A DNA stretch of 64,000 bases, taken from contig CBDEFM010000002.1 in assembly GCA_965237415.1 (NCBI GenBank), positions 1,376,001 to 1,440,000 on the forward strand, read 5' to 3'. Position numbers and translations under genes: made by a program. How positions within the stretch are numbered: the stretch's first letter is position 1; each line of letters begins with the position of its first letter. The notes under the pieces are model-generated. The model was not told the DNA's origin, did not search any database, and saw only the letters and a program-made list of their open reading frames with translations. Shown here one piece after another: positions 2,007-14,084 of the stretch. The stretch is from Alphaproteobacteria bacterium (GTDB lineage Bacteria > Pseudomonadota > Alphaproteobacteria > UBA828).

Positions 2007-2272
2007 AGCCCGCAATTCTCACCAAGGTCATGGCCTGCGCGACGCTGTCCGGCCGAGAGAGCAGGAAAGGCGCGCAGCGCGATGTGGTGCATCGGGCAAG
2101 CGCCTAGACGCACTCTGTCGGCCGGACAGCGTCGCCCTTCGGGTCGCGCCCAGGCGTCCGCCCGCGGCGTCGCGGGCCTCAACCGTAGCCCCGCTACGCT
2201 TTTCGGCCCGCTCCTGGCGGATCGAACGCCTGGGCGCGACGCAGGCCGTGACCCTGGTGAGAATTGCGGGCT
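2007..2272. mobile_element. MITE-like structured repeat, copy 1 (266 bp)
   Basis: TIR AGCCCGCAATTCTCACCA...TGGTGAGAATTGCGGGCT; aligns along its length with the reverse complement of 11963-12230. Confidence 0.85.
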
Positions 2273-9821: not shown

Positions 9822-11048
9822 ATGGCGCCGATGGACGCGGCGGTCGACGTCCGGCCTGAGCCGTATTTCCCCACCGCCGCTGAGGGGACGACGCCCCGGC
9901 GCGTCACGATCCTGGGCTCCACCGGCTCGATCGGCTGCAACACCATCGACCTGATCGCCCGCCACCCGGGCGCGTTCGAGGTCGAGGCGCTGACCGCCCA
10001 GCGCAGCGTCGAGCGGCTGGCCGAACAGGCCCGTGCGGTCGGCGCCAGGCAGGCCGTCATCGGCGATCCCGCGCTCTACGGCGCCCTCAAGGAGGCGCTC
10101 GCCGGGACCGAGACGGCGGCAGCCGCCGGCGCGCAAGCCCTGGTCGAAGCCGCCGCCGCGCCCGCCGATTTCGTGATGGCCGGCATCGTCGGCGCTGCCG
10201 GGCTCCGGCCTACGCTCGCAGCAGCCGCGCAGGGCACCATCATCGGTCTCGCCAACAAGGAGTGTCTGGTCTGCGCCGGCACGCTCATGCTGGCCGAGGT
10301 CGAGCGCGGCGGGGCGACGCTGCTTCCGGTCGATTCGGAGCACAACGCCATCTTCCAGGTGTTCGACTTCGAGCGCAGCGAGGGCGTCGAGAAGATCGTG
10401 CTCACCGCCTCGGGCGGGCCGTTCCGCGAGGCGTCGATGGAAACCATGGCCCAGGCCACGCCGGAACAGGCCGTCGCCCACCCCAACTGGGACATGGGCG
10501 CCAAGATTTCGGTGGATTCGGCAACCATGATGAACAAGGGCCTCGAGACGATCGAGGCCTTTTACCTGTTCCCGGTGGACGCGGAGCAGATCGAGGTGCT
10601 GGTGCACCCGCAATCGGTGATCCACAGCATGGTCGCCTATGCGGACGGCTCGGTGCTCGCGCAGCTCGGCACGCCCGACATGCGCACGCCGATCGCCTAT
10701 ACCCTCGCCTGGCCGGCCCGCATGGCGGCGCCCTCGCCCCGGCTCGATCTTGCGGCCCTCGGCCGCCTCACCTTCGAGCCGCCGGACCCGGTGCGCTTCC
10801 CCGCCCTTCGCCTCGCGCGCGAGGCGCTCACCCAGGGCGGCAGCGCGCCGATCGTGTTGAACGCCGCCAACGAGATCGCAGTCAGCAGCTTCCTCGAGCG
10901 CCGCATCGGCTTCCTGGAGATCGCGCGAACGGTCGAGCGCTGTCTGGAGCAGACCAACCACTGCGCCGTCACCGGGCTCGACGACGTGTACGAGATCGAC
11001 GGTGCCGCCAGGGAGCGTGCCGCGCGCTTGCTCGATGGCGCCGGCTGA
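9822..11048 (+). CDS. dxr: 1-deoxy-D-xylulose-5-phosphate reductoisomerase
   Basis: LGSTGSIG, LANKE, LPVDSEHNAIFQ, TASGGPFR, HPNWDMGAKISVDSATMMNKGLE. Confidence 0.96.
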   Translation: MAPMDAAVDVRPEPYFPTAAEGTTPRRVTILGSTGSIGCNTIDLIARHPGAFEVEALTAQRSVERLAEQARAVGARQAVIGDPALYGALKEALAGTETAAAAGAQALVEAAAAPADFVMAGIVGAAGLRPTLAAAAQGTIIGLANKECLVCAGTLMLAEVERGGATLLPVDSEHNAIFQVFDFERSEGVEKIVLTASGGPFREASMETMAQATPEQAVAHPNWDMGAKISVDSATMMNKGLETIEAFYLFPVDAEQIEVLVHPQSVIHSMVAYADGSVLAQLGTPDMRTPIAYTLAWPARMAAPSPRLDLAALGRLTFEPPDPVRFPALRLAREALTQGGSAPIVLNAANEIAVSSFLERRIGFLEIARTVERCLEQTNHCAVTGLDDVYEIDGAARERAARLLDGAG

Positions 11049-11066
11049 CGGCGCGGGGCCAAGCGG

Positions 11067-11951
11067 ATGACGACGACTGCATCTGCGGCTGTGGGGGCAC
11101 CGGGCGGCCCTGCACCGGCGGCGCGCGAGGAGAACATCGGCGCGCTGATCCGCGCGAACAGCGAGAACTTTCCCGTCGGTTCCTTCCTGATCCCGCCCGA
11201 TTGCCGGCCCCACGTGCACGCGTTCTACCTGTTCGCGCGAAAGGCCGACGACATCGCCGATTCGCCGACCATCCCGGCGGCCGAGAAAGTGGCCCGGCTT
11301 CAGGCCGCGAGCGACGCCCTCGGCAAGGACGAAGCGGCGCTGCCCGATTGGGCGGTGCCCTACCACCGGAGCCTGATCGAGACCGGCTGCGCGGCAGAGA
11401 ACGGGCGCGACCTGCTCTCCGCCTTCATCCAGGACGCGACCAAGCTGCGCTACGCCGACTGGGACGATCTGATGGACTACTGCCAGCGCTCGGCGGCCTC
11501 GGTGGGCCGGGTGATGATGGACATCCACGGGGAGAGCCGGCACGCCGACATCGAGGGCTCGGACGCTCTCTGCAATGCCCTGCAGGTGCTCAACCACCTG
11601 CAGGACTGCCGCGAGGATTACCTTGCGCTGGATCGCGTCTACCTGCCGGAACCGTGGCTCAAGGAGGCCGGCGGCGGCGTCGAGATGCTCGCCGAACGGC
11701 AGGCAGCACCGGCTGTGCGCCGCACCATCGACCGGTGCCTGGAGCACACGGCGGACCTGCTCAGGCGCGCCGAGGCGATGCCGCGCACGGTCCGCCGGCG
11801 GCGCTTTCGCTGGGAGTGCGCGGTGATCGTCAAGCTGGCCTGGGCGCTCCATCGCAGGCTCGCCAATGGCGACCCCCTCGCCGGCCGGATCAGGGTGCCG
11901 ACGCCGAGCCGCGTGGGCCTCGCGCTGAGCGGCATCGTTCAGGCATGGTGA
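11067..11951 (+). CDS. hpnC: Squalene synthase HpnC (hydroxysqualene synthase)
   Basis: ENFPVGSFL, FARKADDIAD, AFIQD, YCQRSAASVGR, LQVLNHLQD, RVYLP. Confidence 0.88.
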   Translation: MTTTASAAVGAPGGPAPAAREENIGALIRANSENFPVGSFLIPPDCRPHVHAFYLFARKADDIADSPTIPAAEKVARLQAASDALGKDEAALPDWAVPYHRSLIETGCAAENGRDLLSAFIQDATKLRYADWDDLMDYCQRSAASVGRVMMDIHGESRHADIEGSDALCNALQVLNHLQDCREDYLALDRVYLPEPWLKEAGGGVEMLAERQAAPAVRRTIDRCLEHTADLLRRAEAMPRTVRRRRFRWECAVIVKLAWALHRRLANGDPLAGRIRVPTPSRVGLALSGIVQAW

Positions 11952-11962
11952 GCACGGCGGTG

Positions 11963-12230
11963 AGCCCGCATTTCTCACCATGGTCGTGGCCTGCGTCGCG
12001 CCCAGGCGTTCGATCCGCCAGGAGTGGGCCGAAAAGCGTATCGGGGAATACGGTTGAGGCCCGCGACGCCGCGGGCGGGCGCCTGGGCGCGACCCGAAGG
12101 GCGGCGCCTTCAGGGCGACAGGGTGCGTCAAGACGCTTGCCCGATGTCCCCGCATCGCGCTGCGCGCCTTTCCTGCCCTGTCGCCCTGAAGGCGCCGCGC
12201 AGACCATGACCCTGGTGAGAAATGCGGGCT
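11963..12230. mobile_element. MITE-like structured repeat, copy 2 (268 bp, inverted relative to copy 1), inserted in the 5' end of hpnD
   Basis: TIR AGCCCGCATTTCTCACCA...TGGTGAGAAATGCGGGCT; removing it restores the frame (M)VSTAV-SLPIPEAP. Confidence 0.85.
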
Positions 12231-13091
12231 AGCCTGCCGATCCCGGAGGCCCCCGATCCGAAGCGCTATGTCGCCGAGGTGACGCGAGCGTCGAGGAGCT
12301 CGTTCTTCCTGCCGATGCTGCTGCTGCCGCGCGAGAAGCGCGAGGCGATGCTGGCGCTCTACGCCTTTTGCCGGGAGACCGACGACGTCGCCGACGAGAT
12401 CGAGGACCCGGCGCAGTCGCGCGCCTTGATCGAGGCCTGGCGCGGCGAGGTCCGGGCGCTCTACCAGGGTGCACCCCGCCACCCGGTGACCCGAGCCCTC
12501 GCCGCCCCGGTCGAACGCTTCGGGCTCGCCGAGCGGCACTTCATGGAGATACTTGAGGGCTTCGAGATGGATGGCGGCGGTGCCATGTTGCGGCCGACCC
12601 TCGCCGAGCTCGAGCGCTACTGCCACTGCGTCGCCGGTTGCGTCGGCCTGCTCTCGGTCGAGATCTTCGGGTACCGCGCGCGAACCATCCCCACCTTCGC
12701 GCGCCACCTCGGCCAGGCGTTTCAACTCACCAACATCCTCCGCGACGTGGCGGAGGACGCCAAGCGCGGCCGCATCTACCTGCCGCAGGAGCTGCTGGAG
12801 CGCCACGGCCTCGCGGACATCGGACCGGAGGCAATCGGGCGCACGCCCGGGGTCGAGAAGGTCTGCGGCGCCCTCGGCGGGATGGCGCGGCGGCGCTTCG
12901 GCGCCGCGAGCGAGGCGCTGCCACGCTCGGAGCGGCGTTCCATGCGGCCCGCCATCCTCATGCGCAGCGTCTACGAAGCCTATCTCGACCGCATCGAGCG
13001 GGCGGGCTTTCCGGTCGCAGGCCGGCGCATCAGGTTCACCGCGACGCAGAAGTTGCGCCTGGTCATGGGCGGGCTGCTGCGGACGATCTGA
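12222..13091 (+). CDS. hpnD: Presqualene diphosphate synthase HpnD (current ATG lies inside the element's right TIR)
   Basis: SSFF, ALYAFCRETDDVAD, GFEMD, YCHCVAGCVG, FQLTNILRDVAEDAKRGRIYLP. Confidence 0.88.
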   Translation: MRASLPIPEAPDPKRYVAEVTRASRSSFFLPMLLLPREKREAMLALYAFCRETDDVADEIEDPAQSRALIEAWRGEVRALYQGAPRHPVTRALAAPVERFGLAERHFMEILEGFEMDGGGAMLRPTLAELERYCHCVAGCVGLLSVEIFGYRARTIPTFARHLGQAFQLTNILRDVAEDAKRGRIYLPQELLERHGLADIGPEAIGRTPGVEKVCGALGGMARRRFGAASEALPRSERRSMRPAILMRSVYEAYLDRIERAGFPVAGRRIRFTATQKLRLVMGGLLRTI

Positions 13092-13133
13092 GCGAAGCGG
13101 CTTCCCCGGCCTCGCCTCGGCCGGCGCAGGGTG

Positions 13134-13164
13134 CTTGCGGGCGGCAAGGGCACGACCATATAAC
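13134..13164 (+). promoter_or_regulatory. Putative promoter for the lgt operon (CTTG...CCATATAAC, sigma32/sigma70-like)
   Basis: CTTGCGG-18nt-TATAAC upstream of lgt. Confidence 0.35.
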
Positions 13165-13268
13165 CAGCCCCGCCGCGCGGAACTTTATGGAGCCGTAGAT
13201 GGCGCGCTTACTGAGTGCGGGCCGCGCCGCACCCTTCACGACTATCTGAGCAGGGACGACCCCTATCG

Positions 13269-14084
13269 ATGACCTTCGCCCTCGCCTTCCCCGCCATCGA
13301 CCCGGTGGCCGTCGAGATCGGCCCCGTCGCCATACGCTGGTACGCGCTCGCCTATGTGGTCGGCCTGCTGCTCGGCTGGCAGTACGTTCGGTATCTCGCC
13401 GAGAAACGCATCGACGGACTGACCAAGCGCCACGCGGACGACCTGGTGGTGTGGTGCACCCTCGGCATCGTCGTGGGCGGCAGGCTCGGCTACGTGCTGT
13501 TCTATCAACCTGGCTATTACTTCGCCAATCCGGGAGAAATTTTGGTGGTCTGGCAGGGGGGCATGTCCTTTCACGGCGGGCTCCTTGGGGTGCTGGTTGT
13601 CGTGGTCCTCTACGCCCGCGTTATGAAAATCAGCCTGCTCTCCGTCGCCGATGCGATCGGCGCGCAGGTGCCGATCGGCCTCTTTCTGGGCCGTATCGCA
13701 AATTTCATCAACGGCGAGCTGTACGGCCGGGCCAGCGATGTTGCCTGGGCGATGGTGTTCCCGCACGGCGGGCCTGAGCCGCGCCACCCGAGCCAGCTCT
13801 ACGAGGCGGTCCTGGAAGGCCTCGTCCTGTTCGCAATCCTGGCGGTCGCTGTGCATGTGCGGCGGCTGGTCCGGCGGCCGGGCACCGTCGCCGGGCTCTT
13901 CTTCGTCGGTTACGGCGTCGCCCGGATCATCGGCGAGGTATTCCGCGAGCCCGATGCGTTCCTCGGCTTCATCGTGCCCGGCCTCACCATGGGGCAGGTG
14001 CTCTCGCTCCCGATGATCGTGATCGGGCTCTTCCTCATCCTTCGCATCCCGCCGGTGCCGCGGGCGGGCGGACAAACCGGGTGA
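13269..14084 (+). CDS. lgt: Prolipoprotein diacylglyceryl transferase
   Basis: IRWYALAY, GGRLGYVLFY, GGMSFHGG, GRIANFINGELYGR, HPSQLYE, LTMGQVLS. Confidence 0.96.
   Translation: MTFALAFPAIDPVAVEIGPVAIRWYALAYVVGLLLGWQYVRYLAEKRIDGLTKRHADDLVVWCTLGIVVGGRLGYVLFYQPGYYFANPGEILVVWQGGMSFHGGLLGVLVVVVLYARVMKISLLSVADAIGAQVPIGLFLGRIANFINGELYGRASDVAWAMVFPHGGPEPRHPSQLYEAVLEGLVLFAILAVAVHVRRLVRRPGTVAGLFFVGYGVARIIGEVFREPDAFLGFIVPGLTMGQVLSLPMIVIGLFLILRIPPVPRAGGQTG

Follow-up and report, generated by a model that had tools for sequence, protein, structure and literature searches.

A miniature inverted-repeat element in the first codons of hpnD and a possible restart of translation at its tip

Can a gene remain in use when a mobile element has landed within its first codons? 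The question is raised by hpnD, a hopanoid gene, in the genome of an alphaproteobacterium of the UBA828 lineage (GenBank assembly GCA_965237415.1), where a 266-nt MITE, or miniature inverted-repeat transposable element, severs the original start of the gene from the rest of its reading frame. We analysed a stretch of 64,000 nt from contig CBDEFM010000002.1 (positions 1,376,001 to 1,440,000 of the forward strand). This whole stretch is the window, and positions without a contig label are counted from its first letter. In the comparisons this genome is G000 and its sister genome is G004; other G and L labels are comparison genomes and loci. A preliminary description of the locus had proposed that the insertion is non-disruptive and that translation restarts at an ATG within the right tip of the element. 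Comparative evidence supports this proposal, namely an allele in which only the tip is left, codon differences in hpnD that are all synonymous, recurrence of the arrangement at other genes and a single orientation of the copies concerned. The tip ATG would very probably be the working start of hpnD. Rescue of the gene by this ATG, with restart coupled to translation of a leader through the element, appears moderately likely and is the best explanation overall.

The element at the hpnC-hpnD junction

The gene for squalene synthase HpnC lies between dxr and hpnD (Table 1). It ends in ATGGTGA (11945-11951), in which its TGA stop (11949-11951) overlaps the ancestral start of hpnD. Both HpnC and HpnD (304.1 bits against TIGR03465, with a cut-off of 278.6) exceed the curated NCBIfam cut-offs. 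From the ancestral ATG the reading frame stays open through the whole element and closes at a TAG that lies 8 nt after the tip ATG, the start of the present hpnD open reading frame (ORF). The ATGGTGA end of hpnC, the open frame to the TAG at 12230-12232 and the in-frame ATG at 12222 had all been pointed out in the preliminary description, and all were confirmed in the sequence.

The bounds first given for the element, 11963-12230 (268 nt), needed a small correction. The element proper has 266 nt and is flanked by TA, and the element together with TA makes up the 268 nt. The family to which it belongs has 21 full-length copies that were extracted from this genome, the others being 69-91% identical to the hpnD copy. 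Judged from the flanks of the 21 copies, the family ends are GCCCGCATTTCTCACC ... GGTGAGAAATGCGGGC, and a TA is duplicated within a YTAR target. Of the 21 copies, 12 have TA on both sides; counted by side, 15 have it on the left and 17 on the right. At each end the tip reads outward GGTGAG-AA-ATG-CGGGC-TA. The overlap of ATG and TAG is not peculiar to the hpnD copy, since it follows from GGTGAGAA-ATG-CGGGC joined to TA and a flanking purine. Likewise, the AGC seen on both sides is the A of the TA duplication followed by GC, which belongs to the element end on the left and to the flank on the right. The element is short, has no transposase gene, carries terminal inverted repeats and a TA duplication, and occurs in dispersed copies with empty sites, as a MITE does.

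Both the inverted ends and the structured nature of the element were borne out. The arms at 11963-12002 and 12191-12230 (40 nt) are 88% complementary, and the predicted RNA fold of the element has a free energy of -219.6 kcal/mol, compared with -150.6 +/- 6.3 kcal/mol for shuffled sequences (z = -11). In this fold both the Shine-Dalgarno (SD) motif and the ATG of the right end are fully paired with the left end. The 3' end of the 16S rRNA of this genome contains UCACC, which is complementary to GGTGA. Thus the anatomy of termination-reinitiation is present at hpnD: a stop 8 nt after the ATG, an SD sequence upstream and the anti-SD sequence in the 16S rRNA. A promoter and terminator scan of 11700-12400 found none, and an Rfam scan of 11000-13500 gave only a sub-threshold radC match outside the element. 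In a Pfam scan (E <= 0.01), three element ORFs of 95, 61 and 105 aa, the leader ORF included, had no match.

Table 1. Features at the hpnC-hpnD junction and a further copy of the element, in window positions
Feature	Position	Strand	Basis or remark
hpnC (squalene synthase HpnC)	11067..11951	+	ORF; TIGR03464, 251.5 bits (cut-off 250.45)
Ancestral hpnD ATG and first six codons (MVSTAV), severed from the rest of the gene	11945..11962	+	
Leader ORF (95 codons) that runs from the ancestral ATG across the entire element to TAG	11945..12232	+	
TGGTGAG, left microhomology partner of the 267-nt deletion allele	11946..11952	+	
Left target duplication, degenerate (GA in place of TA)	11962..11963	.	Ends of 21 copies
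MITE, 266 nt, 'forward' orientation, ends like those of an IS1380-family element	11964..12229	+	21 full-length copies; fold
Right terminal inverted repeat; its partner in the RNA fold is 11964-12002	12191..12229	+	
TGGTGAG, right microhomology partner of the 267-nt deletion allele	12213..12219	+	
SD-like GGTGAG; GGTGA ends 3 nt before the ATG	12214..12219	+	
Present hpnD ORF, 289 codons (MRASLP...), starts at the ATG in the right end	12222..13091	+	TIGR03465
TAG, formed by the right TA duplication and the flanking G; leader stop, 8 nt after the ATG at 12222	12230..12232	+	
Second full-length MITE copy, tips with TTG, not ATG	2007..2272	-	G000:C2:1378007-1378272

Alleles of hpnD and other copies at gene starts

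The empty site that had been predicted by removal of 11963-12230 was found in all 15 other genomes of the genus from which the junction was recovered (L033-L047). In 13 of these, ATGGTGA runs straight into hpnD, and the remaining two (L046 and L047) read CGGTGA. The sister genome G004 has a third form, which reads hpnC-ATGGTGAG, then the last 10 nt of the tip, TAG and hpnD. This allele is a 267-nt deletion between the two TGGTGAG repeats, and the tip is all that remains of the element. The old ATG in G004 leads into a frame of 6 codons, closed by the TAG, which makes the tip ATG the earliest in-frame start available to HpnD. The filled form is ancestral to the tip-only form, since it keeps the native codons 3-6 that the latter lacks.

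The same 267-nt joint (11945 to 12213, with 7 shared letters) was present in all four environmental runs, X1, X2, X13 and X14. Two of these are RNA libraries and two are of unknown kind, and their sequences are metagenome contigs, not this strain. One RNA library yielded a 416-nt contig of the deletion allele that bridges hpnC, the tip and hpnD. Read depth inside the element in these runs reflects the repeat family as present in many organisms rather than expression in this strain.

The hpnD genes of G000 and G004 differ at 21 codons synonymously and at none non-synonymously and encode an identical protein; the DNA that flanks them has about 96-98% identity. The products of the two hpnC genes, for comparison, show 9 residue differences. 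Parsimony with 12 outgroups placed 4 changes on the G000 branch, all of them synonymous, and 11 synonymous changes on the G004 branch, and 5 were ambiguous. This purifying selection on hpnD since the lineages split makes a simple knockout unlikely.

The preliminary description had asked whether other copies prefer gene starts with the ATG in frame, and such copies exist. After in-silico excision, 7 of the 21 full copies in G000 lie 2-6 codons behind a native in-frame start and have their tip ATG in frame. These seven donors of a start codon are the copies at hpnD, tpiA, ispE, lptD, a urtB/livH-like permease gene, a metE-like gene and an amidase gene, and in the six besides hpnD the insertion is 2-5 codons into the gene. 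The amidase gene is a probable case and has an internal ATG. With a crude expectation of uniform insertion (4500 genes, 2% of the genome in first seven codons), the chance of 7 in 21 is about 1e-7. Profiles align from the N-termini of the proteins that begin at a tip (IspE 1-263 to 1-265, MetE-like 6-92 to 7-92, TpiA 11 to 1). Three truncated tips also supply starts, to an araG-like gene, a potB-like permease gene and a histidine kinase gene. The potB-like remnant is common to G000 and G004, and relatives have a GTGA overlap start there. Full-length donors occur in other species as well, at aroA in G018 and at an amidohydrolase gene in G002.

Several of the genes affected have no second copy. 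Both ispE and lptD are single in all 21 genomes, and tpiA is single in the 3 genomes searched. The ispE site is filled in G000 and G004 and has no element in 18 genomes, with a separate insertion about 20 nt upstream in G018; the tpiA site is filled in G000 and G004 and has no element in G032. At lptD, a full copy is present in G000 and an internally deleted copy in G004, and the 12 others with the anchor have no element.

The end motif has 208 matches in the genome (up to 3 mismatches), and TA comes next in 118 of them. The ATG position of the tip, examined in 133 retained ends, is ATG in 52, GTG or TTG in 17 and something else in 64. When tips followed by an open frame-0 gene were compared, 10 of 15 with ATG were donors, versus none of 8 with TTC, ATC or CTC (Fisher p = 0.003). 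Among the tips surveyed in G000, no insertion inside the 5' end of a gene was found in frame 1 or 2, and the genes in these frames all retain their own start 10-60 nt downstream.

Some copies that resemble donors were set aside. The copy at ctaA (C2:588864-589128) was not counted: its tip ATG is in frame and excision leaves no native upstream start, and the profile suggests that about 8 residues are missing. The copies at a GT4 glycosyltransferase gene, at a GFA-family gene, at C2:3897556 and at C2:2861809 are non-donors in which frame 0 is open and the native start is downstream or adjacent.

Three loci in relatives deserve separate mention. The G018 insertion (L200) is an independent MITE between the stop of the upstream gene and the start of ispE, and the same junction has thus been struck twice in the genus. 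At lptD of G004 (L273) the shared copy has lost an internal part and kept its right end, and it resembles a stage on the way from full copy to tip-only remnant. At tpiA of G032 (L230) a 1-nt indel relative to G000 is present and puts the in-frame ATG of G000 out of frame; one TGA was flagged inside the search match.

Restart at the tip and its alternatives

All nine full-length donors, seven in G000 together with aroA of G018 and the amidohydrolase gene of G002, have one orientation (binomial p = 0.004). With this orientation, the entering reading frame remains open in all 21 copies until at most 23 nt are left before the far end; with the opposite one, it meets a stop within the element in 16 of the 21. 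Relative to the tip ATG, the leaders of the nine donors stop at -15 nt (four), -6, +8 (two), +16 and +124 nt (lptD), which means that eight of the nine stop within 16 nt. The leader at the G004 copy of tpiA stops at +8 nt. In copies of 267 nt, two in-frame TGA codons precede the tip ATG. An in-frame coding repeat similar to the Rickettsia palindromic elements (RPEs) was rejected, because the element is cut off from the host protein by stops (TGA..TGA or the TAR of the duplication). Together, the uniform orientation, the leader stops near the ATG, the match of SD and anti-SD sequences and the paired start region point to translation of the leader, opening of the hairpin and restart at the tip.

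We propose that the MITE entered hpnD behind its sixth codon, at a YTAR site of which the TA was duplicated. Its tip would have brought an SD-like sequence and a start codon and, once the duplication had been added, a TAR stop in another frame. HpnD would then be made from 12222 as MRASLP..., (M)RASLPIPEAPDPK, with three new residues in place of the six original ones. In the full-length allele the tip would be held by the left end in a very stable hairpin. Ribosomes that finish hpnC would restart at the old ATG by means of the ATGGTGA overlap, and their translation of the 95-codon leader through the element would melt the hairpin. Termination at the TAG, 8 nt past the tip ATG, would be followed by restart at this ATG, a case of termination-reinitiation coupling. 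Deletion of the hairpin at a later time would leave the tip as the permanent start of the gene, as in G004. If the tip ATG is indeed the start, it is likely that initiation there depends on translation of the leader. A more general proposal is possible and is offered tentatively. The tip, which combines stops, an SD sequence, an ATG and a stop made by the duplication with an open leader frame in one orientation, might be a portable translation-restart module that settles at little cost in first codons, those of essential genes among them, and in operon overlaps. It would be a counterpart of the intron at the level of translation, and subsequent loss of the hairpin would rewrite gene starts across the genus and possibly across phyla.

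A number of observations weigh against restart at the tip or against its coupling to the leader. The leader at lptD stops 124 nt beyond the ATG. An open forward frame is common to all 21 copies, intergenic ones included, and may be the inherited composition of a sequence with 70% G+C rather than a selected property. In-frame placement is partly forced, since YTAR in genes with high G+C at third codon positions (GC3) has mostly the phase xxT ARx, and the tip ATG is then automatically in frame. Genes and native starts were called from ORFs, GC3 and profiles, with no gene finder. Donors are few in G018 and G002, where 20 of 28 ends were examined in each. Across many phyla, 93 tips among the matches listed are followed by a frame-0 ORF of at least 100 codons in 13 cases and by a frame-1 ORF in 17, and only about 2 of the 93 look like start donors, with no general excess. 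At hpnD itself, the evidence for selection on the G000 branch (4 synonymous, 0 non-synonymous) is thin. In runs X1, X2, X13 and X14 no contig bridges the junctions of the filled allele, and the finding of the deletion allele in all four could mean that the full insertion is costly. Finally, the HpnD family profile aligns from residue 21 only, and initiation at an internal GTG near codon 20 might in principle yield an active protein.

These points bear on four other explanations. Ribosomes might use the tip ATG independently of the leader, either by loading co-transcriptionally before the hairpin closes or after other factors have cut or opened the hairpin. The tip-only alleles (hpnD in G004, the potB-like gene in G000 and G004) need no long leader, lptD is intact with its distant leader stop, and intergenic copies have the same open frame, all of which would fit. 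It is harder to reconcile with an SD sequence and an ATG that are fully paired in the -219.6 kcal/mol fold, and with eight of nine leaders that end next to the ATG. Moreover, both tips are alike, so independent initiation predicts no preference of orientation, whereas all nine donors have the open-frame orientation. We consider it unlikely. Another explanation is that the full insertion silences or strongly reduces hpnD here, as a recent knock-down that has not decayed, with only the tip-only allele functional. In its favour, the start region is buried in a very stable hairpin, the four environmental runs contain the deletion allele and never a bridged filled form, and hpnD is not an essential gene. 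Against this stand the intact ORF and the protein shared with G004 in the face of 21 synonymous differences, with 4 synonymous and no non-synonymous changes on the G000 branch, and the full copies in the same arrangement at single-copy ispE, tpiA and lptD in both G000 and G004 (about 96% DNA identity). In addition, the tip-only state arose from the filled one, with which hpnD had therefore survived. A knock-down is improbable on these grounds, more so than independent initiation.

The late start of the HpnD profile would agree with a protein made from the GTG at about codon 20, a shortened product that might fold, in which case the tip ATG would be unused. The first 10 codons after the junction, inspected by eye, vary mostly at third positions across the genus, which indicates that they are translated, and ispE, tpiA and the metE-like gene have no alternative start before conserved N-terminal residues. 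At that GTG no SD-like sequence was noted, and no search aimed at one was made. An internal start is very unlikely. The preliminary description had also considered that the element is removed from the RNA or that the ribosome passes over it, with MVSTAV-SLPIP as the restored sequence, and the terminal stem does bring the two junctions together. However, the sole joint in RNA-library contigs skips 267 nt, not 11963-12230; it is the microhomology deletion, which is also found in G004 DNA and in the two runs of unknown kind. It is thus a DNA allele and lends no support to excision or bypass. Nor is there a stop after the would-be take-off codon, the leader frame being open, or a match to an Rfam family, and other genes have 265-nt copies for which no such step is required. 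We regard this explanation as close to excluded.

Source of the element family and known systems

The tip pattern is present in all 21 genomes of the genus, with 1-59 occurrences each (59 in G000), and a reversed control pattern gave 0. The exact 18-nt tip occurs in at least 114 stretches from many phyla; among the matches listed, the identical tip is found in metagenome-assembled genomes labelled Gammaproteobacteria, Planctomycetota, Acidobacteriota, Verrucomicrobiota, Gemmatimonadetes, Nitrospirota and others. In two loci, L096 and L107, the same ends flank IS1380-family transposases of 455-475 aa (NF033539, E 6e-124 and 2e-116), and in L096 the ends are about 1.7 kb apart around the transposase gene. 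Judged by these ends, the MITE appears to be a non-autonomous derivative of an IS1380-family insertion sequence (IS), and the distribution of the tip suggests that this IS1380 clade, with its MITEs, has spread widely by horizontal transfer. A response regulator gene (L090) and a permease gene (L128) look like further start donors.

The hpnD MITE has the ends of L096 and L107, carries no transposase and has a TA duplication in YTAR. Target duplications of the IS1380 family are 4-5 bp long. The flanks of the MITE copies vary independently outside TA, which fits a 2-bp TA duplication in YTAR; L096 has CTAG on both sides and fits either 2 bp or 4-5 bp. A MITE of the IS630/Tc1 type was considered and rejected: the TA duplication would fit, but the ends flank an IS1380-family transposase and not one of IS630. 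G000 has three IS1380-type genes, with other ends and with 38% identity to the L096 protein. A search of G000 for an autonomous parent found these ends in pairs separated by 450 nt at most, and no matching full element. A plasmid collection gave a single partial match of 68 nt, which is uninformative.

Start codons in the ends of a bacterial MITE have been described before. MITEAba12 of Acinetobacter has outward start codons in its ends, like the element studied here, and provides the first four residues (MQQS) of a neighbouring gene in three records (PMC6382973). In the available text of that paper this is a passing remark ('data not shown'), with no housekeeping first-codon insertions, leader ORF, coupling, orientation bias or tip-only remnants, and the parent IS is a different one. 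REP2 of Neisseria and the IR repeats of Borrelia place a site for ribosome binding and an ATG in front of genes. As described in the text available (PMC3184786), they have no terminal inverted repeats, are not MITEs, carry a promoter and lie upstream of genes, not inside them. RPEs resemble the hpnD MITE in that they are hairpin repeats within genes, metabolic ones included, that do not destroy them. In the account available (PMC10969869), RPEs are translated in frame within the host protein, whereas the hpnD MITE is set apart by stops and the protein would restart at the tip. In operons with overlapping stops and starts, termination-reinitiation takes place where an upstream stop is a few nt from the next start and an SD sequence lies just before it, according to the portion of PMC6728339 available. 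Unlike those overlaps, the hpnD junction belongs to a mobile element, and the part of the upstream 'gene' is taken by a leader that the insertion made. Literature searches, with supplements outside their scope, found no paper on a MITE in the first codons of an essential gene with a leader ORF coupled to a start in the tip. The available text of a 2024 review of prokaryotic MITEs (PMC10969869) contains neither 'start codon' nor 'ribosome', the only two words checked.

If restart at the tip is true, a transposon in the first codons need not knock out a gene, and this would apply even when the hairpin has about -220 kcal/mol and when the gene is ispE, tpiA, lptD or aroA. The persistence of MITEs inside operon junctions would then have a concrete mechanism, and mobile DNA would have a route, from full copy to tip-only remnant, by which it replaces gene starts. 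Restart at the tip would also offer a natural test bed for termination-reinitiation after a long leader. For annotation, genes split in this way are easily miscalled as pseudogenes or assigned wrong starts.

The second full-length copy in the window (2007-2272) has a frame-2 gene that follows its right end after a TAG. Elsewhere on the same contig (L231:1000-3244; G000:C2:2315040-2317284), an IS1380-family transposase gene lies between two arms of 341 nt that are 99% complementary and far longer than ordinary IS ends. On the smaller contig, two 450-nt elements with the ends of the present family (G000:C1:14891-15340 and C1:257961-258410) have identical end motifs and flanks. They are in opposite orientation about 243 kb apart and may be part of a large inverted duplication.

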